This document shows positions 4,297 through 63,541 of a stretch of 64,000 nt of DNA, one piece after another. Source of the DNA: a virus. Lineage: Duplodnaviria; Caudoviricetes. The position numbers and the translations under genes were made by a program. The notes below the pieces were generated by a model, which had not been told where the DNA came from, made no database searches, and was given only the letters and a program-made list of their open reading frames with translations. Within the stretch, counting starts at the first letter, position 1. Each line of letters begins with the position of its first letter. The DNA lies in IMG/VR virus record IMGVR_UViG_3300043567_000723; one strand, written 5' to 3'.

Positions 4297-5934
4297 ATGA
4301 GCGTAACGCCGCAGCAATTCGGTATGCAACTGGGTCAGCAAGCAAAGCAGGCAAACTTAGGCAACGCTTTGCGCGGCCTTGGTATTCAAGCTGGTCGCGC
4401 TGGCTTACGCCTTGGTAACGCTGCCAAGCCGCTTGTCGATGAAGCCACAAGCATGGCGAACACTGGCGCGCAAAGATTGGGCCAGACGATGTTCGGCAAC
4501 CCTGTTCGCGCTGCTGTGTCGGGCGCTGGCTTAGCAACAGCTGGTCTTGCCTACGGTGATCATCTGGCGGCTAAGAACCAAGCGATGTCGCAGCTGAAAG
4601 ACGTTAACAACGACGTGCAGAAGTTCAAGTTAAATGGCGTGGGCAGCGGCATGAAGATGCCGCAAATGCCGTCTAATGGTGTAATGCCGCGCAGCACTGG
4701 CCAAGGCGGTCTTACGGGCGGCGGCGGTCCGTTGTCGATGTCTCTGGCCGGCAAGCAAGCCGGAATCGTACCGAGTGTGTGGGATGCTACTTCTAAAAGT
4801 CTTCAACAGCGCGCTTCTTTACTCCAAGACATGTTTGCAAACTTGCGGCCGCTGGCTGGGCGCAAAGGTTTAAATGCCGTTGGGGCTGCATTTAAACCAG
4901 AAAAATATAACGGTAACTGGGGTCGCGGTTTAACCACGCAGCATCTGAGCAAAATGACCGATGATGCGTCGCAACAGCTCGGTAGCGTGAGTGATAAATT
5001 AGAAAACCTGCAAGATCTTTTTCCATTAAAGAAAGCTTCGCTACTCTCGGCCCTTAGCGGCGGTTTGGGTGCTGGCGTCGGTGGCCTCGCTGGCGGTATG
5101 GGTGGCGGCATGATGGGTGCGCTTACCGGCGGCGCGTTAGGTGGCGCTCCGGGTGCTGGCATTGGTCTGCTCTCTGGCGGCGCGCTGGGCATGGGCGCTG
5201 GTGCGCATCTGGGCGGTAACATCGGCGCGAGCATTGGCAAGAAAAAGAAGAAAGACGACGAGCCTAAGAAAGAAGAATCGGCCGAAAAAGAAGAAAAATC
5301 CGATGAGGGCGAAGAAGAAGTTAAAAAGAGCGCCGCGGCTGTTTTAACTTTGCTGCAGAAAAACAACCCAGAGCAATTTAAAGCAGCGGCGGGCCCGGGC
5401 ACAGCGGAATTCGGCACGAAGGTGACGCCGACGGGTAGCCGACGTGCCGGCCCGATTGTAACTCAGCCGAAGCCGATTCGGATGCCGGTTGGTCCTGCTC
5501 CGGCGGCACGACCTGCGGCTGCTCCGGCTGCTGCTCCGGCGGCTGCTCCGGCGGCACGACCTGCGGCTGCTCCGGCTGCTGCTCCGGCGGCTGCTCCGGC
5601 GGCTGCTCCGGCGGCACGACCTGCGGCTGCTCCGGCTGCTGACCCGCGGCGCCAATATACGCCGTTTGATTGGAATAAATATCCGCACGACCAACAGAAA
5701 AATTTTGAGCGTGACGTGACACGGCGAATGTATACACAGTACGGCGTCCCCGAGCACGCTATGCGGATACCAAAAAGCGCGCCTGATCTATGGCAGAATG
5801 TGCCGCAAGACCAGCGAAAAATGATGGAACGCGATGTGCAAGAGCGGTTGTACGGCCAGTATGGTGGTGTGGAAGCGTTTAATAACTCGATGAGCGACTG
5901 GGCGCAGCGCGAAGCCACACCGCCCGCGCAGTAA
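4297..5934 (+). CDS. Gly/Ala-rich KxA-motif protein (putative internal head/ejection protein), 545 aa
   Basis: Start moved from 4135 to ATG 4297 (SD AGGTGA, no overlap with helicase). Leader QFGMQLGQQAKQA, glycine-zipper segment, acidic/basic linker, PAAA repeats. Confidence 0.7.
   Translation: MSVTPQQFGMQLGQQAKQANLGNALRGLGIQAGRAGLRLGNAAKPLVDEATSMANTGAQRLGQTMFGNPVRAAVSGAGLATAGLAYGDHLAAKNQAMSQLKDVNNDVQKFKLNGVGSGMKMPQMPSNGVMPRSTGQGGLTGGGGPLSMSLAGKQAGIVPSVWDATSKSLQQRASLLQDMFANLRPLAGRKGLNAVGAAFKPEKYNGNWGRGLTTQHLSKMTDDASQQLGSVSDKLENLQDLFPLKKASLLSALSGGLGAGVGGLAGGMGGGMMGALTGGALGGAPGAGIGLLSGGALGMGAGAHLGGNIGASIGKKKKKDDEPKKEESAEKEEKSDEGEEEVKKSAAAVLTLLQKNNPEQFKAAAGPGTAEFGTKVTPTGSRRAGPIVTQPKPIRMPVGPAPAARPAAAPAAAPAAAPAARPAAAPAAAPAAAPAAAPAARPAAAPAADPRRQYTPFDWNKYPHDQQKNFERDVTRRMYTQYGVPEHAMRIPKSAPDLWQNVPQDQRKMMERDVQERLYGQYGGVEAFNNSMSDWAQREATPPAQ
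5494..5646 (+). repeat. Coding tandem repeat, ~12-nt units (GCTCCGGCGGCT variants) encoding PAAR(PAAA)n
   Basis: Directly visible in DNA and translation. Confidence 0.9.
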
Positions 5935-25536: not shown

Positions 25537-28500
25537 ATGCCGACCCCTGAACTGCCCCCGTTAAAGCAACCCGATTTTGCTTCTGCGCCGCCGTTAGCGC
25601 CCGCAGCGCCAGCGCCTCTTCCGCCGCCAGCCATGCGCACGTTTGGCGATATTGGATCGATGCGGCAGAACATATTTGAGCAGGCACGTACGAGCGCGCA
25701 ATCGTTGCGGCCTCTGCAGAACGATCTTTATACGCTGCAGCTGCAAGACGTAGATTATTCCGGCCCAGAAAGTTTCACACGGGCTGATCAGAAGAAAGCT
25801 GTCCTCTCTAGAGGCACGCTTGCTCGCCGATTGCAGGGTACGTGGACGCTCGTTGATAACAAAACCGGCGAGTCGGTTGGGCAGAAGCGCGCTACGATTG
25901 CACACGTGCCGTATCTCACAGACTCTGGCACATTCGTAAACGGCGGCGTTGAATATACGCTAGCGCATCAGATGCGGTTAAAAGCCGGTGTGTTTACGCG
26001 CGAAAAAGACAACGGCGAGATTGAAGCGCATGTGAACACGCTGCCCGGTAAAGGCCGCTCGCATCGTTACTTCCTCGACCCCAAAACCGGCGTATTCAAA
26101 ATCAGCATCGGGCAGGCGCAGATCCCACTCATGCCGATGCTCAAAAGCATGGGCGTCTCTGAGCAAGATATTCGCAAGGCGTGGGGCAACGAGATTACCG
26201 CCGTCAACATGGAAAAAGGCGACGCGGGCACAATGGATAAATTGTATGCCCGCATCGTAAATAAACAGGTGGCGGGAGCTGACGCGCTGGCCAAAGCAAA
26301 GGCTGTGGCTGAAGAGTTTGCCAAGACAGAGTTAGATCCAGAAGTAACTAGACGAACACTCGGCGGCGAGCACAAGAACCTTACGCCTGACACCATTCTG
26401 GCGATTACAAAAAAACTTATCGCCGTCAATCGTCGCGAAGCCGAATCAGACGACCGCGACAACATGGTGTTTCAGTCAGTGGTCGGTCCAGAAGATTTAA
26501 TATCAGAACGGTTTACAAAAGATCGGTCTGCGTTAAATAAATTACTCTGGCGGGCCACAGCGAAGAAGTCTATCGACCACATACCCAGCGGCGTATTCGA
26601 TAAGGCTATTTCAGCTGCGCTAATCGGCTCTGGTCTCGGCTCTAGTCTTGAAGAAATCAACCCGGCCGAGATTTTCGACCACCAGACGCGCGTAACCCGC
26701 ATGGGCGAGGGCGGCATCTCGTCACTAGACGCTGTTCCGGCCGAATCGCGTAGTGTGCAGCCGTCGCATCTCGGGTTCATCGATTATCTGCGGACGCCTG
26801 AGTCCGGAAAAGTCGGCGTTGATATGCGTTTTGCTCGTGGCGCAATGAAGGGCGCTGACGGCAAGGTGTATACGCCGGTTGTAAACATGCAGACCGGCGA
26901 AACAGAATATAAAACACCGCAAGAGCTGTCAGACACACCGCTAGTGTTCCCCGGCGAAGAGAACAACAAGTTGCCGGTTGTCGCTGCGCTCGTCAACGGA
27001 AAGATGAAGTACGTTGACCGAAAAGAAGCGCAATACAGCTTGCCCAACATGGACTCGACGTTCTCCAGCCTTACAAACATGGTACCGATGAAGGCCATGA
27101 TCAAAGGCCAGCGCGTCATCATGGGTTCGCGCATGTTTACTCAAGCTTTGCCGCTTGTAGGAGCGCAAGCGCCGTTAGTGCAGTCGGCCAAGTTTGATGA
27201 CCCCAACATGTCGCACGAAGACGAAATGGGAGAAAAGCTTGGCGCCACCCGGGCAACCACTCGCGCGCAGGTAGTCGATGTAACGGCTGACGGTATTGTG
27301 CTGCGCGACAAAGACGGGAACAAGAAAACAGTCGAGTTGTATAACGAGATGCCGTACAACCGAAAAACGTTCTTGCATCAAACGCCGATGGTAAAACCCG
27401 GCGATGTTGTGCAACCCGGGCAGCTGCTGGCTAAGTCAAACTTCACAGATGATCAGGGTAGCGCGGCACTCGGGCTTAACATGCGTGTAGCTTATGTGCC
27501 GTTCCGCGGTAAAAACTACGAAGACGCCATAGTGATATCAGAATCGGCGGCAAAACGGTTGACGTCTGAGCACATGTATCAGCACGAAGCAGAGTGGGAT
27601 GAAAATACACACGTCGGGAAAAAGGCATTCACAAGTCTGTTTCCGACAGAGTACGACAAGAAAATGCTGGACAATTTTGACGATCAGGGCGCAATTAAAA
27701 AAGGCGCTGTCGTTAATTTTGGCGACCCCCTTGTTCTCGTCGCTAAGAAAAAAGATACGGTGTACGGCAAGGTGCACCGCGGTCGTGCCGGTAGTTTCAC
27801 CAACGACACTGTTACGTGGGACCATCACGCGCCCGGTATTGTAACCGACGTTATGCACACCAAAAAAGGTGTCAGCGTTGTTGTAAAAAATCAGGCGCAG
27901 ATGGACGTTGGCGATAAGCTCACCGGTCGCTTTGGTGATAAGGGCGTCATTGCCGATATCATTCCAGACGACCAGATGCCGCAAGACAAAGAAGGCAATC
28001 CGTACGAAGTGCTTGTCAGTCCGCTGGGTCTTATCAGCCGCGTGAATCCGGCGCAGGTTATAGAAGCAGCACTCGGTAAAGTTGCAGCAAAAACAGGCAA
28101 ACCATTCAAAATCAAAGACTTCGATGACCAGAATGATTTAATTGAATTTGCGCAGAAAGAACTCGACAAGAACGGGCTTTCAGACACAGAAGATTTAACA
28201 GATCCTGAGACTGGCCGAAAAATTCCGGGTGTTTTAACCGGAACGCGTTTCTTCATGAAACTGCACCATACAAGTGAGTCTAAGGCGCAGGGTCGGGCCA
28301 TGGGGGCTTATACCGCCGAAGGCACGCCAGCAAAAGGTGGCAGTGAGGGCGCGAAGCGTGTTGGCATGCTCGACCTCGGTGCTTTGTTATCGCACGGCGC
28401 TGGTAAAGTTATCCGCGACGCCAAAATGGTACGCGGGCAGGCCAATCCAGAATACTGGTCGCAGTTCATGGCTGGCTATACGCCGCCGCTGCCGAAAGTT

Positions 28501-29973
28501 CCGCATGTCTATGAAAAATTTGTTGGGCAGCTGAAAGCGTCTGGCATTAACGTCGTCCGCAGCGGCACGAAAACAAACGTCATGGCGTTGACTGACAAAG
28601 ACGTGGATCAGCTTGCCGGTCCAAGAGAGATTCAAAACTCTGAGACTGTTGACTGGAAAGGCCGGTTGAAACCAATTGCTGGCGGCCTGTTTGACGAGAG
28701 CTTAACAGGTGGTCACGGCGGCAATCGGTGGGGGAAGATAACCCTTCACGAGCCGATGCCGAATCCAGTCATGGAAGATCCGATCCGGCGTGTTCTCGGG
28801 CTAACAGAAAAGAAATTCCGCGGTATCCTCGCCGGCCAAGACAAGATTAACGATCAAACCGGTCCCAAAGCTATTCAGACGGCGCTGGCCAATATTAATC
28901 TGCCGAAAGCGATTGAGCAGGCGCGTGAAGATATCAAATCCGGCCGTAAGACACTGCGCGACGCCGCTGTTCGTAGGCTTGGGTTTTTGAAAAGCGCGGA
29001 GCAGGCCGGTGTGCATCCGAAGGACTGGATGCTGACAAAAGTTCCGGTCCTGCCGCCGCTATTTCGGCCGGTCAGCACCATGGGGCCGAAGAAGTTGCCG
29101 CTCGTTGCCGACGCGAACTACTTGTACAAAGAATTGCTCGACGCCAATGACTCGTTAAAAGAAGCGTCTGGTGCGCTTGCAGAGTACGGCGACGAGCGCC
29201 TTGGTGTATATGACGCCATGAAAGGCGTGACCGGTCTTGGTGAGCCGCAGCAGCCGAAAAACGCTGAACGCAACGTAAAGGGATTTTTACGGCATATTTT
29301 CGGCAACTCGCCCAAGTACGGTACGGTACAGCGCAAGTTACTCAGCTCGACGGTTGATCTTGTCGGCCGCGCTGTTATTACGCCGAACCCAGACCTAGAC
29401 ATGGACGAGGTTGCCCTGCCAGAAGAGAAGGCGTGGGATATCTATAAGCCTTTTGTGGTGCGCGATTTAGTTCGCCGCGGCCTTCCCAGAATGCAGGCAC
29501 TTGATGCCGTAGAGAAAAAAACGAAAGAAGCGGCAGCCGTGCTTGAGCGGCAAATGAGTTCGCGCCCGATTGTTATTAACCGCGCGCCCGTGCTGCATCG
29601 TTACGGCATGATGGCTTTCTACCCGCGGCTGACCAAGAACAAAGTCATGGAAGTCAACCCGGTTATTACCAAGGGTTTCGGCGCTGACTTTGACGGCGAC
29701 GCGATGCAATACCACGTACCCAGCACAGAAGACGCCGCTAAAGAAGCCGTGGACAAAATGCTACCCAGCAAAAATTTATTTGCGGCATCCACGTTTAAAG
29801 CGCACTACGTACCGAACAAAGATTATCAAACTGGTTTGTACGTCGCGTCCAGTAGAATTAATAACAAAGCAAAACCCCGGGTATTCCGAAACAAGCAGGA
29901 CGCTATGCAGGCGTACAGGCGTGGTGAAATAGAGGTAGACACCCCGGTTCATATTGTGGAAGATACTAAGTAA
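25537..29973 (+). CDS. rpoBC: DNA-directed RNA polymerase, beta subunit fused to N-terminal half of beta' (catalytic)
   Basis: Beta motifs TPESGKVG, NYEDAIVIS, GDKLTGRFGDKG, FMKLHH; beta' motifs VPVLPPLFRP, GRAVI, NRAPVLH, GADFDGD (29680-29700). Confidence 0.95.
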   Translation: MPTPELPPLKQPDFASAPPLAPAAPAPLPPPAMRTFGDIGSMRQNIFEQARTSAQSLRPLQNDLYTLQLQDVDYSGPESFTRADQKKAVLSRGTLARRLQGTWTLVDNKTGESVGQKRATIAHVPYLTDSGTFVNGGVEYTLAHQMRLKAGVFTREKDNGEIEAHVNTLPGKGRSHRYFLDPKTGVFKISIGQAQIPLMPMLKSMGVSEQDIRKAWGNEITAVNMEKGDAGTMDKLYARIVNKQVAGADALAKAKAVAEEFAKTELDPEVTRRTLGGEHKNLTPDTILAITKKLIAVNRREAESDDRDNMVFQSVVGPEDLISERFTKDRSALNKLLWRATAKKSIDHIPSGVFDKAISAALIGSGLGSSLEEINPAEIFDHQTRVTRMGEGGISSLDAVPAESRSVQPSHLGFIDYLRTPESGKVGVDMRFARGAMKGADGKVYTPVVNMQTGETEYKTPQELSDTPLVFPGEENNKLPVVAALVNGKMKYVDRKEAQYSLPNMDSTFSSLTNMVPMKAMIKGQRVIMGSRMFTQALPLVGAQAPLVQSAKFDDPNMSHEDEMGEKLGATRATTRAQVVDVTADGIVLRDKDGNKKTVELYNEMPYNRKTFLHQTPMVKPGDVVQPGQLLAKSNFTDDQGSAALGLNMRVAYVPFRGKNYEDAIVISESAAKRLTSEHMYQHEAEWDENTHVGKKAFTSLFPTEYDKKMLDNFDDQGAIKKGAVVNFGDPLVLVAKKKDTVYGKVHRGRAGSFTNDTVTWDHHAPGIVTDVMHTKKGVSVVVKNQAQMDVGDKLTGRFGDKGVIADIIPDDQMPQDKEGNPYEVLVSPLGLISRVNPAQVIEAALGKVAAKTGKPFKIKDFDDQNDLIEFAQKELDKNGLSDTEDLTDPETGRKIPGVLTGTRFFMKLHHTSESKAQGRAMGAYTAEGTPAKGGSEGAKRVGMLDLGALLSHGAGKVIRDAKMVRGQANPEYWSQFMAGYTPPLPKVPHVYEKFVGQLKASGINVVRSGTKTNVMALTDKDVDQLAGPREIQNSETVDWKGRLKPIAGGLFDESLTGGHGGNRWGKITLHEPMPNPVMEDPIRRVLGLTEKKFRGILAGQDKINDQTGPKAIQTALANINLPKAIEQAREDIKSGRKTLRDAAVRRLGFLKSAEQAGVHPKDWMLTKVPVLPPLFRPVSTMGPKKLPLVADANYLYKELLDANDSLKEASGALAEYGDERLGVYDAMKGVTGLGEPQQPKNAERNVKGFLRHIFGNSPKYGTVQRKLLSSTVDLVGRAVITPNPDLDMDEVALPEEKAWDIYKPFVVRDLVRRGLPRMQALDAVEKKTKEAAAVLERQMSSRPIVINRAPVLHRYGMMAFYPRLTKNKVMEVNPVITKGFGADFDGDAMQYHVPSTEDAAKEAVDKMLPSKNLFAASTFKAHYVPNKDYQTGLYVASSRINNKAKPRVFRNKQDAMQAYRRGEIEVDTPVHIVEDTK

Positions 29974-29996: not shown

Positions 29997-30707
29997 ATGT
30001 TCACTGTTAACCCCGAACTAATCGCGCTGGCAAAGGCGCGATTTGAGAAGTCTGCGCTCGTGCCCGGTGCCGCCGTTGATCCGGCTGCGGCTGGGGCTGC
30101 ACCGCCAGTAGACCCTGCGACCATGGGAGCAGTGCCGCCGGTTGACCCCGCGATGGCCGGCGCCGCGCCCCCGATGGATCCCGCGGCAATGGGTATGCCT
30201 GCTGCGCCTGCGCCCATGCCTGCTGCTCCGGCGGCGCCGGGTGCGGCCCCCGCATCTGGAATGCAGCAAAAGTTAAAACCAGAACAAATGATGCAGATGC
30301 TCGATTACCGGCTTTACAACATGCAGCAGCAGCTTACCGCGATTATGAACGCGATGGGCGTGCAAGTTCCGCCGGAATCGCTCGTCCTGCCGCCGGGTAC
30401 TACTGGCGCCCCGCCCGCTGAAACAGCGCTGCCGGGTGGATCGATGGCTCCTCCGCCGCCGGATCAAAGCGCGCAGGGTGGCATGCAGCCGCCCGGTGGC
30501 CCGCTTCCGCCGGGTGGTCCGCTCCCGCCGAACGCCGCACCGCAAGATCCGACAGCGAAGGTTGCTTGGTGGAACGTAGAAGCGGAAAAGCCGGCGTCGT
30601 ACATCGGCTATCCTGTGCCGCAAAACCCGAATCAACCAACTGACGTGCAGATTAAAGCAAATGCCATATCCGCCATGATTCGGAGTCTTGCGGGCAATGC
30701 TGGTTAA
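29997..30707 (+). CDS. Pro/Ala-rich KxA-motif protein between the RNAP genes
   Basis: FEKSA after a 19-aa leader; MDPAMAG-type repeats; CACGGAGG RBS. Confidence 0.75.
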   Translation: MFTVNPELIALAKARFEKSALVPGAAVDPAAAGAAPPVDPATMGAVPPVDPAMAGAAPPMDPAAMGMPAAPAPMPAAPAAPGAAPASGMQQKLKPEQMMQMLDYRLYNMQQQLTAIMNAMGVQVPPESLVLPPGTTGAPPAETALPGGSMAPPPPDQSAQGGMQPPGGPLPPGGPLPPNAAPQDPTAKVAWWNVEAEKPASYIGYPVPQNPNQPTDVQIKANAISAMIRSLAGNAG

Positions 30708-30936
30708 AACGCAGCACCACTTACAGCCAACCGAGCAAAAGGCGCACAGCATCGTCGTGGAAGACGACGTTGGTAATCCGATCTTCGTCGCCATTCAAGT
30801 CGACGAAGCCATCATTTACTCAACGCCCGGCGAAAAAGACTTCCACTCAATGCTGCGCGCTCTGGGTATTGAAAAAACGGTGGTTGTAGCCGACTTTAAA
30901 CCTAAGCCGCTGCAGAATATTGTGCGGCCGATGTAA
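30697..30936 (+). CDS. Small hypothetical protein, 79 aa
   Basis: ATG 30697 with GGAG upstream; fills the gap before the beta'-C gene. Confidence 0.6.
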   Translation: MLVKTQHHLQPTEQKAHSIVVEDDVGNPIFVAIQVDEAIIYSTPGEKDFHSMLRALGIEKTVVVADFKPKPLQNIVRPM

Positions 30937-30937
30937 C

Positions 30938-32818
30938 ATGCTTAAAACCACGCTCGGACAAGTCCTGATTAACGAAGCGCTCCCGCCGGAGATGCGCGAC
31001 TATGACCGCGTGCTCACTAAAAAAAGCATGGGCGCGCTGGCGACTGAGCTAGCCAAGTCGCATCCCGAAAAATATCGGGAGGCAATGAAAAAACTGCACG
31101 ACGTCGGCAAAGACGCTGGTTACAGCAGCGGCGGGCTTTCTTTCAGTTTGAAGCACATTCGCCCGACGCTGGCCGTGAAAGCCGCGCAGATTCGCACGCA
31201 AAATGCCATGCGCGAGATTCTGTCCGACAAGCGTTTAGACAGCAAAACGCGGCAAATTAAACTGCTAGAGTTAGCTGCAAACACGCAAAAAGAGTTGCTA
31301 GACAAGGTCTACAAAGAAGCCGAGAGCCAAGACAATCCGCTGGTGCATCAGATTGCTGGCGCTGGTGTCGGCAATAAATATCAATTGAATTCTTTGATCG
31401 GGGCTGACATGCAGTACCTCGATCACCGCGGCGAGCCGATTCCAATTCCAGTGCTACGCGGCTACGGGCAAGGGTTACGCCCCGTTGAATATTTTGCCGG
31501 CGCTTTCGGTACCCGCAAAGGTGTTATCGACCTTAAGACGGCCACCGCCGACGCTGGGTTTTACGGTAAACAGCTGGCGCAGATGACGCACAGACTTTTA
31601 GTCACCGCGGACGACGATGACGATACAGACGAAGAGCGCGCGGCATCTGCGTTAGAACGTGGCTACCCCACAGACGTCGATGACCCAGATAACGAGGGCT
31701 CACTGCTCTCTCGCCCAATCGGACCGTATAAACGCAACACGGTATTAACGCCGAAGATCCTGCGTGACATTAAGGACATGGGCGTTAAAGATATTTTAGT
31801 CCGTAGCCCGATTGTAGGGGGTCCAGCAGATGGCGGCGTATACGCGAAGGACGTTGGTTATCGCGAAAAAGGCCGTTTACCGCCGGCTGGAGATTATGTG
31901 GGCATCGCCGCGGCCCAAGCGTTGTCTGAACCTGTCACACAAAGCCAGATCAGCTCGAAACACTCTGGCGGTGTCGGCGGCGCAGGCGCAATCTCTGGTT
32001 TTAAAGCGCTCAATGCCCTTGTGCAGGTGCCGAAAAAATATCCCGACGGCGCCGCGCATGCGCAAGCCGACGGCCGGGTGCAAGAAATCCGTCCGGCTCC
32101 GCAGGGCGGCCACTATGTGCAGATTAATGGGCAAGATCACTATGTTCCGACCGAGAGAGCATTATCAGTTAAAAAAGGCGATGATCTTGAAGCTGGCGAC
32201 GTACTATCTGACGGTATGCCCAACCCGTCAGAGATCGTAAAGCACAAAGGCATCGGCGAGGGTCGGCGTTATTTTGTGCAAGCCATGCGGCAGGTAATGG
32301 GCAATAGCGGGATTACAGCTCACCGCCGAAACATTGAATTATTGTCGCGCGGCCTTGTAAACCATGTCCGGCTGACCGACGAATATGGCGATTACTCGCC
32401 GGACGACATTGTGCCGTACTCTTCGTTAGAGCGAAATTGGACGCCGCGCGACGGAAGCGTGTCAGCGGCGCCGCAGACATTAACCGGGCACTATCTCGAA
32501 AAACCGGTTTTACACTATTCAATCGGCACGAAGATCGGTAAAAACGTGCTAACGAACTTGAACAAATACGGCATTAAAAATATTCAAGCCCACAAAGAAC
32601 CGCCGCCGTTTCAGCCGGAAATGGTGCGGGGTATGGCCAATATTTCAAATGACCCGGATTGGATGACGCGCATGCTTGGGTCGTACCAAGAAAAAGGTTT
32701 AATGAATAGCGTTCACCGCAACTTATCCAGCGACGCCGCCGGCAGCAGTTATGTGCCTGCTTTAGCGCAAGGTGAGCAGTTTGGCGTAACCGGCACGACA
32801 AGCGGGTGGAAGCCTTGA
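30938..32818 (+). CDS. rpoC: RNA polymerase beta' C-terminal subunit (bridge helix, trigger loop)
   Basis: TTLGQVLIN; EYFAGAFGTRKGVIDLKTATADAGFYGKQL (bridge helix); GIAAAQALSEPVTQSQISSKHSGG (trigger loop). Confidence 0.92.
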   Translation: MLKTTLGQVLINEALPPEMRDYDRVLTKKSMGALATELAKSHPEKYREAMKKLHDVGKDAGYSSGGLSFSLKHIRPTLAVKAAQIRTQNAMREILSDKRLDSKTRQIKLLELAANTQKELLDKVYKEAESQDNPLVHQIAGAGVGNKYQLNSLIGADMQYLDHRGEPIPIPVLRGYGQGLRPVEYFAGAFGTRKGVIDLKTATADAGFYGKQLAQMTHRLLVTADDDDDTDEERAASALERGYPTDVDDPDNEGSLLSRPIGPYKRNTVLTPKILRDIKDMGVKDILVRSPIVGGPADGGVYAKDVGYREKGRLPPAGDYVGIAAAQALSEPVTQSQISSKHSGGVGGAGAISGFKALNALVQVPKKYPDGAAHAQADGRVQEIRPAPQGGHYVQINGQDHYVPTERALSVKKGDDLEAGDVLSDGMPNPSEIVKHKGIGEGRRYFVQAMRQVMGNSGITAHRRNIELLSRGLVNHVRLTDEYGDYSPDDIVPYSSLERNWTPRDGSVSAAPQTLTGHYLEKPVLHYSIGTKIGKNVLTNLNKYGIKNIQAHKEPPPFQPEMVRGMANISNDPDWMTRMLGSYQEKGLMNSVHRNLSSDAAGSSYVPALAQGEQFGVTGTTSGWKP

Positions 32819-32899: not shown

Positions 32900-35284
32900 G
32901 TGTATAACAAAAAAGCTAAAGAGTCGTCCGTTAAGCATCTGCTCAACGTCATGCGGTCCTATGACCGGACCCAGACTAAGTACGCTGATTTAGGCGGAAA
33001 AGGTGATGACACTTCTTTCGAGCAGTCGTTTAGCAATCTTGCGCACGCCTATCTCCGCGACTCAGCACCCAAGCTCCTTGACCACGAGATCGGTTTCCAG
33101 CTTCTCGACCGTAATCGCGAGAACACCAAGGCTGTCGGTGTATTTGCGTTTAAAGTTGGTTCGATGTGGCTGTACGCGCCCGTGTTCTTTTTAAACGGCG
33201 ACCTCAAGGGCCACGAACTGCTGTATATCAAGAATCAGGACATGTTCGTGCCGCTCAAGGAAAACTGGATTAACTATCTGATCAACCGCAAGCCCAACAT
33301 TCTTGGTAGCGGCGTCGAGCGCAATCTGTCTAATCTCGGCCAGCGCCAGCCTGACTTTACGCAACTCTCTCGTAGCCCGTCGAAGTTTGGTTCGGCGAAA
33401 CCCACGCTTAAAGAGATGATGACGGCCGCTATGCCGGCGTTCGCCAAGAGCGCCACATTAAATACACAACAAACCTTCGCTGAACTCGGTGAAGCGTTAA
33501 ACCTGAAAACGTTCTTAAAGCAGGCTGGTTTAGACGTAATCGGCTCGTTAATTAAAATGTGCCAGTACGCGCCGCAGGTAGCCAACGCAATCGACGAGTT
33601 TCACGGTTTAGATATCATCAAAGAAGCAATGGCTGCTGCCAAGCTTCGCGAAGCCGCCTCGACTACCAAAGTTGCCAGCGTACTGTCGGAAGCACCTAAG
33701 ACGCCCGAAGCGGCCAAGGGTCTCAAGGTCATCGCGTATGACGCTACAGTTCAGACCAAACTGCCGGCTGGTCATACAGAAGAAGATCAAGAGAAGTTAC
33801 TGCGCGACGGTGTGCTGATCCAAGACCAACGCGACCGCGACAATGTCTCGATCCCTTACAACATTCAGGTCGAGAAAAAGCTGTTCAATCCGACCGAAAG
33901 CGGCCTGTACGAGATCCTCGTCAAGCCCGGCGATATTGAGCGCTGCTACGTGGCTGTGCACCCGCAAGGCGCTGCCAAGCGCGAGAACTTCATTACTGTT
34001 GTGCGCACAGACGGCAAGCCTGACTGGCTTAATACCCGCGCTGACCAAGTGTTTGCGCTGTCGCGCGTTGAGGGCGAAGAGTTTGACAAGTGGTTCGACG
34101 CCCTGCCCGAAGCCAACAGCGTGCCCAGCAAAGACGCGCGGTATATCGCACTTAGCAAGCGCGGTGACTGTACGGCTCCGTTCCGCGTTATTCGCGAGTA
34201 CGGCAAGTCGGAGCACGACATGCAGTGCTACGAAGTGCATCTTGAAGATCACTCGAAGTATCCGCCCAAGGGCAGCATTTGCGGTAGCTGCTATACAGAC
34301 CCTCTGAACTATGACAAGTGGCGTGACGGTGTTCGCATTCACCTGAACGGTAAGAAGGGTTCCAGCCTGCGCGCGAGCATGGGCGACATCTTCGTGCCGG
34401 AAGGTTTCAAGCTCCTCAAGGTGAGCAAGGGCGCAGACGATGAGGACACGGTTAAAGATCAGGACGCATGTGGTTGCGGCGAGAGTGATCCGCCGGCCCT
34501 GCAGCCCGGCAACCTCGTTGACGCGCAACTGGCGCTGATGGGCAAGACTGCCGCCTTAACTGTGTACCACAACGGCACAGAGGTCAGCATTAACAAAGAA
34601 GCCAGCCTAAGCCCCATCAAGGCGCTGGTCACACTTGTTGAGCACCACGGCCTGCGTGAAGAAGCTGCCCGCGAGATCTTAAAGCAAGCGTCTGCCAAGA
34701 AGAAGTTTGAGTGCCGCGTGAAGTACGCCGATCCGTACGGCGGCGCAATGCTCGTCAACAGCGCCCCGAACGCCCCGACAGATCCGGGCCCGGTTATGGG
34801 CGGCGAAAGCATCATGGGCACCAGCGTTCCGACCCAGCTCGGTATTGACGTTGGTCTGCCTGTGTCTGGCATGAGCGCGAGCAACACAGACCGCAGTGTT
34901 TACAACCCCAACACGCAGTTTGATAAGCGAGACGTGCGGTCTATCGTTGACGCCGCGCAGAGCGGCCAGCGCGAAGTATTTGACACGGCCATGGTGGGCA
35001 CAATGTTGCGCGCTGTACGTGACGACTCGCTGGTTGACCGGTATATGGGCGAGCTGACCAAGGGGTTAGACAAACTTGGCCGCATTTTATTTATGTTTTA
35101 CTGGCACGGCGATCGGTTTGCTGAGCGTTATGGCAAGTCCGACATGCCGGAACTAGAAGATTCGCTGCGCAACGCGTTTGAAATGCTCGGCGACGTTATT
35201 CTGTTCCTCAAGCAGAAAACAATTGAACCGTATCCCGAAGAGGCCGCGTCGGATATCGATCTTGGCGCTACCGCTAACGTTTAA
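32900..35284 (+). CDS. Large KxA-rich virion (head) protein, 794 aa
   Basis: GTG 32900 with CATGGAGG RBS; many KxA motifs (TKYAD, AKSAT, LKQAG, TKVAS, GKTAA, VKYAD). Confidence 0.7.
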   Translation: MYNKKAKESSVKHLLNVMRSYDRTQTKYADLGGKGDDTSFEQSFSNLAHAYLRDSAPKLLDHEIGFQLLDRNRENTKAVGVFAFKVGSMWLYAPVFFLNGDLKGHELLYIKNQDMFVPLKENWINYLINRKPNILGSGVERNLSNLGQRQPDFTQLSRSPSKFGSAKPTLKEMMTAAMPAFAKSATLNTQQTFAELGEALNLKTFLKQAGLDVIGSLIKMCQYAPQVANAIDEFHGLDIIKEAMAAAKLREAASTTKVASVLSEAPKTPEAAKGLKVIAYDATVQTKLPAGHTEEDQEKLLRDGVLIQDQRDRDNVSIPYNIQVEKKLFNPTESGLYEILVKPGDIERCYVAVHPQGAAKRENFITVVRTDGKPDWLNTRADQVFALSRVEGEEFDKWFDALPEANSVPSKDARYIALSKRGDCTAPFRVIREYGKSEHDMQCYEVHLEDHSKYPPKGSICGSCYTDPLNYDKWRDGVRIHLNGKKGSSLRASMGDIFVPEGFKLLKVSKGADDEDTVKDQDACGCGESDPPALQPGNLVDAQLALMGKTAALTVYHNGTEVSINKEASLSPIKALVTLVEHHGLREEAAREILKQASAKKKFECRVKYADPYGGAMLVNSAPNAPTDPGPVMGGESIMGTSVPTQLGIDVGLPVSGMSASNTDRSVYNPNTQFDKRDVRSIVDAAQSGQREVFDTAMVGTMLRAVRDDSLVDRYMGELTKGLDKLGRILFMFYWHGDRFAERYGKSDMPELEDSLRNAFEMLGDVILFLKQKTIEPYPEEAASDIDLGATANV

Positions 35285-61914: not shown

Positions 61915-63541
61915 TCCGTACGTCTATGCAAAGTTTAAGCTCAAAGCTGTAATCGGCGGACACACGTTTGAAGACATCGTGTCGATGTCGGCTACGTTTG
62001 GTTTAAATAGCATTCCAACCGCAACACTGACAGTCGCCGTCGGGCACGACGCGCGTAGCGGGCGGTCAAAAAAGGCGACGATTCATACAGCGCGCAAAAG
62101 TCTTAAACCCCGCGACAAAGCGGTTGTCACATTAACAATCTCGCCGACCGAGGGTAATACCTCAAAAATGGAAGAAGGCGAATTCGTTATTTTTGACGGA
62201 ATGCTCGCGGGTATTGGGTATCAACGATCGCACAATAACGCGAACTACACCATTCAACTAATACACTGGCTTGACGACCTAAATAACTCGTCTGCGTTAA
62301 ACGGCAATTGGTTTCCGAATGCGCCGTATAGCATGGCCACGAACGCCGCATTTTATGCGCTAGAGCTTGGTGAAGGCGGCGGGGCCGGTGGCGATCAGTG
62401 GTCGTCTGTGCCTGCTATTGATATCAACGGTGATCATATTAACAAAGGTCAAATTGAATCCGACCTTTGGGGTAACGTGATCAAACCAGTGTTCGAAAAA
62501 ATTGCGCAGTACCCATTACCAAACGACAAGCCAAATGACGCAGCTATTAAAGCGTTAGAGCGCATACCGAACGGTGCGCCTTTTAATACTCCGCTGCGTT
62601 TAGATCTTGAAGGTTTAAACGCAAATGATATTGAGTTGTCTGTGCGCACAGCGTTAACGAAAGACTCGCTTGATTCGTTTGCATATACGTCTTTCTGGGG
62701 AAAACTTGTTGGAGAGTATGCTGCGGCGTTTTTCTTTGCCGTATCTCCCGGCATCGAGCACGCATGTGTTATTCCGTTTTTTGGCGGTTTGAAGTTTGAA
62801 GACGGAGCCGCAGGCGCAAAAACAATTTATGGCGACGAGTATAGTTATGCGAACTTTAATGCTAGCTTAACGCAGCTACTGGAAAGCGTAATGGTCTTTT
62901 GGCCATCGCAGTCCGACCCGATGTTGGGCACGGGCGGCGAGACGCAGTCGATCGATTCGTTTACTTTCCCGGTAGGCGAATACCCCAAAGGCGCAGCAGG
63001 AGAAGATAAGCCGGGACTTAAGTTGTTCAAGGATCTGCCGCCGTGGCTAGCGAATATCTCTCCTTGGCCCGTGTACACAGGTCCGACAACCGGTATTAAG
63101 GGCAAGTTACCGGGAGATTGCTTAGCGCCACAAACGGGCGAATCAGATCCACCACCAAACTGGCTACCGCCTGCTGAAGCGGCTGACGAGATGACAGATA
63201 AAGTGGCAGAGCGATTTGCGCACCACTGGTATAAAACTGAACTGCTCGGTCAACGTTACGGCGAGCTATCGGGCAAATTACGATTTGATATCGCGCCCGG
63301 CAGCATAGTCAAAATAGAAATGCCGACAACTGAAATCGAGTCTGACGGTTTTATGGTTGCGGCTGTGACGCAGGTTTCATACGCAATCAACGCAGAGCGC
63401 GCGCTGGCCGGCACGTCTTTTGCGCTGTCGTATTTACGTACAGTAGAAGAAGATAATGATAGTTTAATCACCCACTCATTTGCGCCGTTATACAAAGAAG
63501 GCACAAAATGGCACGGCGGACCACTCAAGAAGAATCCTTAA
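61907..63541 (+). CDS. Putative baseplate hub protein (gp27/GpD-like)
   Basis: N-terminal beta region (IFDGMLAGIG) and C-terminal SGKLRFDIAPGSIVKI...VTQVSYAI. Confidence 0.55.
   Translation: MADPYVYAKFKLKAVIGGHTFEDIVSMSATFGLNSIPTATLTVAVGHDARSGRSKKATIHTARKSLKPRDKAVVTLTISPTEGNTSKMEEGEFVIFDGMLAGIGYQRSHNNANYTIQLIHWLDDLNNSSALNGNWFPNAPYSMATNAAFYALELGEGGGAGGDQWSSVPAIDINGDHINKGQIESDLWGNVIKPVFEKIAQYPLPNDKPNDAAIKALERIPNGAPFNTPLRLDLEGLNANDIELSVRTALTKDSLDSFAYTSFWGKLVGEYAAAFFFAVSPGIEHACVIPFFGGLKFEDGAAGAKTIYGDEYSYANFNASLTQLLESVMVFWPSQSDPMLGTGGETQSIDSFTFPVGEYPKGAAGEDKPGLKLFKDLPPWLANISPWPVYTGPTTGIKGKLPGDCLAPQTGESDPPPNWLPPAEAADEMTDKVAERFAHHWYKTELLGQRYGELSGKLRFDIAPGSIVKIEMPTTEIESDGFMVAAVTQVSYAINAERALAGTSFALSYLRTVEEDNDSLITHSFAPLYKEGTKWHGGPLKKNP

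Follow-up and report, generated by a model that had tools for sequence, protein, structure and literature searches.

The window analysed here is a stretch of 64,000 nucleotides (nt) of the IMG/VR virus record IMGVR_UViG_3300043567_000723 (Duplodnaviria; Caudoviricetes), and it contains an RNA polymerase (RNAP) gene from a lake-water jumbo phage in which the beta subunit and the N-terminal, catalytic half of the beta' subunit (beta'N) form one continuous reading frame. The remainder of beta' (beta'C) is encoded by a separate gene downstream. The beta::beta'N fusion was confirmed as real and not an artefact, and we consider it fairly likely that the phage builds a two-chain core of bacterial type that relies on a phage sigma factor for promoters and is probably packaged in the virion. 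Multisubunit RNAPs are thought to need an alpha-type platform that joins beta and beta', the phiKZ and AR9 phage enzymes being the known exception. The fused family would represent a second, simpler solution, in which the two barrels are tethered covalently, the mobile half of beta' is separate and a recognisable sigma partner is kept.

Feature coordinates are collected in Table 1. In Pfam searches, the fused protein matched Rpb2_3 and Rpb2_6 (residues 582-926; E 1e-51), followed by Rpb1_1 and Rpb1_2 (residues 1327-1405). Using phmmer against the PDB, residues 83-1028 were matched to bacterial beta (best E 2e-68) as a single stretch, i.e., the beta portion is unsplit, and residues 1081-1473 were matched to beta' (E 1e-51), corresponding to E. 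coli beta' 159-544. The first conserved beta' block (residues 1031-1058) was recognised through a weak alignment to B. subtilis beta' 27-53, and the chain stops about 90 residues past the catalytic GADFDGD. Motif search found a beta lysine motif of the GDKLTGRFGDKG type (GDK..GR.GDKG) in every complete related locus. A preliminary description of the window had placed both catalytic barrels on one chain and the bridge helix and trigger loop on another; the lysine and catalytic motifs do lie in the one frame, and both mobile elements fall within the separate beta'C gene. This gene lies 965 nt downstream of the fused gene, and its product was found to lack the SI3 insert when aligned to M. smegmatis beta'. 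Its ATG start was fixed from the N-terminus MLKTT.GQ, which is shared across the loci of a lake clade, five of which have a Val (GTG-type) start. The N-terminus of the fused protein itself (window 25537-25660, residues 1-41) consists of a variable Pro-rich segment of about 32 residues and then MRTFGDIGS (residues 33-41), which loosely resembles the FG...G leaders of nearby proteins (at 4297, 6893, 7669, and 8405) and might be a packaging signal.

The junction sequence, GINVVRSGTKTNVMALTD, covers residues ~1004-1020 (nt ~28546-28596). The earlier placement of the beta/beta' boundary at 28540-28590 fits this sequence, and the stretch TNVMALTDKDV...GGLFD, which had been read as the start of beta', fits the weak B. 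subtilis match. The junction is crossed with 0 differences and 0 gaps by contigs X7 (27800-28837), X8 (28102-29300), and X9 (28296-28785), which derive from three independent runs of lake metagenomes, none of them made on the likely source sample; a stop or frameshift at this point, a concern raised in the preliminary description, was absent from all three. Among the datasets listed for the junction stretch, none was of RNA. About 40 IMG/VR loci (39-90% identity) carry the beta lysine motif and the beta' DFDGD in one frame, about 590 residues apart. A protein collection held 1270 clusters of the fusion protein at 90% identity, and the best 120 of the 1270 were 79-100% identical and carried Rpb2_6 and Rpb1_2, often on contigs of 195-213 kb. 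In a full HMMER scan with residues 880-1478, the best 150 representatives (50% identity) all had E <1e-170; in these, the match lies at the C-terminal end of proteins of 1440-3350 amino acids (aa), the long ones of which carry in-frame inteins. In lake metagenomes, and in others too, the fused family is very frequent: at least 150 clusters exist at 50% identity. A tblastn search of deposited phages returned four records, in each of which a single match spans 96% of the fused protein, namely Salmonella phage Arash and the Vibrio phages D69, D181, and D148, and the junction alignment is continuous even in relatives at 31% identity, including Arash and D69.

Residues 880-1478 were modelled using AlphaFold2 with a mean predicted local distance difference test (pLDDT) of 88 and a predicted template modelling score (pTM) of 0.80, and the junction appeared as a strand-turn-strand element at model residues 125-138 (pLDDT 90-96). 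In a fold search with the modelled junction and beta'N, the top matches were cyanobacterial gamma and plastid RpoC1 (template modelling score 0.60-0.64, E ~1e-31), which are natural N-terminal halves of beta'. An assembly or sequencing error, or a fragment of bacterial rpoBC mis-joined into a phage contig, is given next to no credence as the origin of the frame. Nothing in its favour was found; some fusion relatives are deposited in metagenome-assembled genomes (MAGs) labelled as bacteria. The identical sequence occurs in contigs from several lake runs, the frame is common to hundreds of independent assemblies and four cultured phages, and the neighbouring genes that were checked are phage-like or without a known family. 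In a scan of 185,579 species genomes with a family-specific pattern, relatives were found on 13 MAG contigs only, none of them from an isolate, which fits a lytic phage lineage whose contigs were mis-binned with bacteria.

The fusion could also be a precursor that is cleaved close to or within the junction during maturation, by the phage head protease or a different one, the working enzyme then having separate beta and beta'N chains as in other phage polymerases, and we regard this as very unlikely. A precursor would be in keeping with the location of the RNAP genes in the virion module and with the loose likeness of MRTFGDIGS to the leaders of nearby proteins, and some phiKZ-like virion polymerase subunits are processed. 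The junction itself argues the other way: it is only ~5-8 residues long, is modelled as an ordered hairpin with no exposed linker, contains no K-x-A motif, and is compact across lineages only 31% identical.

In Arash, the match lies inside one coding sequence, gp206 (1525 aa, labelled 'subunit beta'), and the beta'C homologue is gp216. Arash (gp206, gp216, and gp10) and the Vibrio phages D69, D148, and D181 resemble the window in that beta::beta'N is fused at an alignable junction and lacks a zinc-binding domain, beta'C has its own gene, a homologous sigma-like protein is encoded, and each genome record contains one polymerase set. They differ from it in sequence (31% identity), in their enterobacterial and vibrio hosts and in genomes of 181-187 kb, and Arash has nine genes between its two RNAP genes and, after beta'C, a gene annotated as helicase rather than the 794-aa protein found in the window. 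The Arash report (PMC10585845) gives gp206 as the most detected virion protein (3516 spectra, 100% coverage) and also places gp216 (1210 spectra) and the 'sigma factor' gp10 in virions, all three being abundant there; the polymerase proteins are annotated as plain beta and beta', and the fusion is unmentioned. The RNAP genes of the window are co-oriented among virion genes, the confirmed PHROG matches being weak endolysin and tail-type ones. By analogy with the Arash homologues and from this gene position, the polymerase is probably packaged in virions of the window phage.

The source contig is a 157.5-kb IMG/VR contig that was estimated by CheckV to be 77% complete. A hidden Markov model search of the whole contig recovered one sigma70-like gene, which starts at 63508 and was missed by the preliminary description. 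Its product reached 32.1 bits for Sigma70_r3 against a cut-off of 25.3, and regions 2 and 4 were weak; the gene was found via regions 4 and 3, and a contig search for Sigma70 region 2 (PF04542) gave no match. Arash gp10 is a homologue of the protein (28% identity, E 4e-21), and the member, contig, and longest-contig figures of the identical-sequence cluster of the window protein equal those of the fusion-protein cluster. Because a sigma70-like gene is present, the enzyme appears more bacterial-like than the phiKZ/AR9 type. A helical hairpin was modelled at the clamp-helix position of the fused protein, and prediction of a complex between the sigma-like protein and residues 880-1478 scored 0.64 (best control, 0.00), with runs agreeing in at least 52% of contacts and a partner pLDDT of at least 66. 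The mark used for this score is reached by 58 of 80 solved complexes and by 2 of 110 mismatched pairs. The predicted confident contacts join sigma residues 58-98 to the clamp-helix hairpin (model residues 313-353). Since sigma and beta' are a textbook pair with solved structures, the score may reflect only likeness to solved holoenzymes.

A sigma-like protein could instead serve the host RNAP, as in T4-like and many jumbo phages, with the phage core using another factor, perhaps the 794-aa neighbour, or none. This is judged unlikely. Reviews describe phage-encoded sigma homologues as a typical trait of phages relying on the host enzyme and note that the phiKZ and AR9 polymerases work with non-sigma factors. 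The 794-aa gene follows beta'C both in the lake clade and in Vibrio phage D69. A sigma acting with the phage core is favoured by its co-occurrence with the polymerase in the lake clade and Arash, by the retained clamp helices, on which sigma region 2 is set in the complex prediction (possibly a mere holoenzyme likeness), and by the presence of the Arash sigma alongside the polymerase among the virion proteins (PMC10585845).

No match to alpha (PF01193) or omega (PF01192) was obtained on the whole 157.5-kb, 77%-complete contig under conditions in which 14 of 14 control genomes were matched, so that the absence of both genes noted earlier for the window extends to the contig. The contig holds one polymerase set, with a single Rpb2_6 and a single Rpb1_2 match. 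It is quite unlikely, in our estimate, that the two phage chains are active only together with host alpha and omega. To our knowledge, every cellular enzyme of the two-barrel multisubunit type uses an alpha-like platform, and the known engineered and natural beta-beta' fusions still contain alpha, which would support such a hybrid. On the other side, the phiKZ and AR9 cores function without alpha or omega; an enzyme packaged for early transcription, as the Arash proteome suggests by analogy, should be self-sufficient; and host proteins are not among the Arash virion proteins listed in the passages covered (PMC10585845).

In place of the beta' zinc-binding domain, each of the 40 family members matched by motif search has a segment of 27-32 residues that contains no cysteine, and the cysteines of the second beta' zinc site, in beta'C, are substituted in the alignment to M. 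smegmatis beta'. In a 63-sequence family alignment, D1384, D1386, G1387, and D1388 are invariant. Of the 41 alignment rows matched by motif search, 21 have G immediately before A/M/L-DFDGD, 15 have N, and the other 5 have either A or T. Related IMG/VR loci likewise have G, N, A, or T before ADFDGD; in the family alignment, the following A can be M, L, or G. Cellular enzymes keep N in NADFDGD.

In the two-chain arrangement that we favour, the first chain comprises a trimmed beta, a short ordered hairpin and beta'N (clamp, clamp helices, and Mg-binding barrel) without a zinc-binding domain, and the second is the C-terminal half of beta' with bridge helix and trigger loop but no SI3 and no second zinc site. 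The analysis establishes the domain content, the unbroken frame, its conservation in a very large phage family, and the lack of alpha and omega genes on the 77%-complete contig; assembly without alpha, the partnership with sigma, and packaging in this phage are inferred. Together the two chains would form a compact core of ~2100 residues. The covalent link between beta and beta'N would keep the two barrels together, and because it joins them, the alpha-dimer assembly platform may be unneeded. Promoters would be recognised by the phage sigma70-like protein docked on the clamp helices. If Arash is a guide, core and sigma would be made late, packed in the capsid and injected, and would transcribe early genes independently of the host enzyme. 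Several points weigh against this reading. The packaging analogy comes from a relative at only 31% identity, and the missing 23% of the genome could carry genes for alpha-like or omega-like subunits or for a second polymerase. Sigma factors encoded by phages usually redirect host transcription, and it is unusual to find G instead of the conserved N beside the catalytic aspartates. The mass spectrometry table for Arash is silent on whether gp206 is cleaved or uncleaved (PMC10585845).

A bolder form of the proposal, which we hold only tentatively and think doubtful, is a self-sufficient, zinc-free holoenzyme of three polypeptides (beta::beta'N, beta'C, and phage sigma) that would travel inside the capsid and enter the host together with the injected DNA. 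If this were true, it would be the first sigma-dependent virion RNA polymerase, and the role of the alpha-dimer assembly platform, used by all cellular enzymes, would be taken over by the covalent link between beta and beta'N.

Two known features come together in the layout: the beta-beta' join resembles that of Helicobacter, and the split of beta' resembles that of cyanobacteria or phiKZ. In the natural rpoB-rpoC fusions of Helicobacter and Wolbachia and in engineered E. coli fusions, the C-terminus of beta leads directly into the N-terminus of beta', which is possible because both ends adjoin in the enzyme; these fusions have a whole beta', keep the zinc sites, and function with alpha and omega. 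In the window, the frame likewise runs on from the end of beta into the start of beta' without a break, but its beta' is cut again after the catalytic barrel, and the remainder lies in a separate gene. Division of beta' after the Mg-binding barrel is shared with the gamma/RpoC1 and RpoC2 subunits of cyanobacteria and plastids. The phage break comes ~65-70 residues before the gamma C-terminus (residue 1472 aligns with gamma 557 of 626); in cyanobacteria, beta is not fused to gamma, and the phage beta'C is without an SI3 insert.

The phiKZ and AR9 RNAPs are likewise phage-encoded two-barrel enzymes with no alpha or omega and with beta' split after the barrel, and virion packaging is likely common to them and the fused family. 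They have 4-5 core polypeptides with beta also split (two or three polypeptides), whereas the beta of the window is intact and fused. They also come as two paralogous sets, one virion and one non-virion, and use gp68 or gp226 where a sigma homologue is lacking, in contrast to the one set found on the 77%-complete contig, where a sigma70-like gene is present, and to the Arash record, where the polymerase occurs in one place. In crAss-like gp66, YonO, and the tape-measure-fused polymerase of P23-45, both barrels are also on one polypeptide, and some of these enzymes are virion-delivered. They are single-chain and very divergent, with no recognisable beta/beta' accessory domains; the window enzyme differs in its strong bacterial homology (E 1e-68, 1e-51) and in needing a second chain for the bridge helix and trigger loop. 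The contrast drawn in the preliminary description with phiKZ/AR9 (beta also split), crAss-like (single chain), and Helicobacter (full-length beta' fused) enzymes holds.

The mReC polymerases (PMC7481178) come from metagenomic tailed phages as well, and their beta and beta' are bacterial-like and can be recognised with COG0085 and COG0086. Membership in mReC was rejected; the listed mReC contigs have separate adjacent genes for beta (~1011 aa) and beta' (~904 aa). The mReC study required NADxDGD (PMC7481178, Weinheimer & Aylward 2020). Lake 'beta prime' proteins of 1467-1510 aa occur only in sheet 2 of its Supplementary Data 2, as undiscussed IMG/VR hits outside the mReC cluster (PMC7481178), and are probably unrecognised members of the fused family. 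Vibrio phage Va2 and Rhizobium phage RHph_Y65 were also considered for the same layout and rejected; they have an intact single beta' gene (1127-1192 aa).

The preliminary description had allowed that the architecture might already be standard in a described phage family. It is widespread and present in deposited isolate genomes and a large metagenomic family, but it is undescribed as a fusion in the literature searched, which covered Arash, mReC, two-barrel polymerases, and jumbo or huge phages and left subscription journals outside its scope. The beta::beta'N fusion goes unmentioned in two reviews, one from 2020 on phage multisubunit polymerases and one from 2026 on jumbo phages. Fusions of 1450-1530 aa are labelled 'beta subunit' in current annotation, and marker-gene surveys may count them as beta or as beta'. 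A zinc-free core of ~2100 residues with a relaxed NADFDGD is relevant to the question of what the bacterial enzyme can do without, and the cultured Salmonella member, Arash, makes biochemistry, structural work, and rifampicin tests feasible.

Three further ORFs (open reading frames) lie next to the beta'C gene (Table 1). The Pro/Ala-rich protein encoded between the two RNAP genes keeps its position in the lake clade (47-83% identity) and gave no match in a Pfam search. The 79-aa ORF that follows it is kept in 35 related loci (43-87% identity) and also had no Pfam match; in size and location it would be compatible with a small polymerase subunit. The 794-aa protein always comes after beta'C in the lake clade, where it is 71-89% identical; it keeps this position at 35-37% identity in loci L034 and L036 and 27% in L049, is weakly recognisable after beta'C in Vibrio phage D69, and is about as conserved as the polymerase genes. 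PHROG, Pfam, and Atlas searches with it gave 0 matches, and its AlphaFold2 model was poor (pLDDT 56, pTM 0.32). Its conservation and position suggest that it could be a further polymerase-associated or virion protein.

Table 1. Positions of the polymerase genes, their motifs, and associated genes in the 64,000-nt window.
Feature	Position in window	Strand	Basis or remark
Fused gene, beta plus N-terminal catalytic half of beta'	25537..29973	+	Single ORF, 1478 aa, no stop
Beta barrel lysine motif GDKLTGRFGDKG, residues 792-803	27910..27945	+	Motif search; inside Rpb2_6 match
Junction, ~5-8 residues (VVRSGTKT, residues ~1006-1013), last beta strand to first beta' strand	28552..28575	+	
Catalytic motif GADFDGD, residues 1382-1388	29680..29700	+	First residue is G; N in cellular enzymes
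Pro/Ala-rich protein of 236 aa, encoded between the RNAP genes	29997..30707	+	ORF
79-aa ORF	30697..30936	+	Overlaps stop of Pro/Ala-rich gene; ends 1 nt before beta'C start codon
Beta' C-terminal subunit, 626 aa	30938..32818	+	Pfam Rpb1_5; aligns with M. smegmatis beta' 664-1181
Bridge helix in beta'C	~31472-31585	+	Alignment to M. smegmatis beta'
Trigger loop in beta'C	~31901-31975	+	Alignment to M. smegmatis beta'
Conserved 794-aa protein, directly after beta'C	32900..35284	+	GGAGG 6 nt before GTG start
Sigma70-like gene, 284 aa	63508..64000, running 362 nt past window end (G000:C1:142204-143058)	+	Pfam Sigma70_r3

The MAG contigs with fusion relatives (L056-L068) reach 199 kb, and the labels of their MAGs include Aquaspirillum, Gemmataceae, Nanopelagicales, and Alphaproteobacteria; they are most likely phage contigs mis-binned with bacteria, and the labels are not host evidence. 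Insertions were seen in several relatives. In Vibrio phages D181 and D148, the fused gene is interrupted next to a homing endonuclease. Locus L050 (5475-13076) has a LAGLIDADG intein right after the catalytic motif, giving a 2534-aa frame, and L049 (9617-14311) has an in-frame intein in beta. An insert of ~350 aa without assignment is present in beta in L027 (7953-13424) and L043, and L010 has an insert of ~1.1 kb in beta'C.

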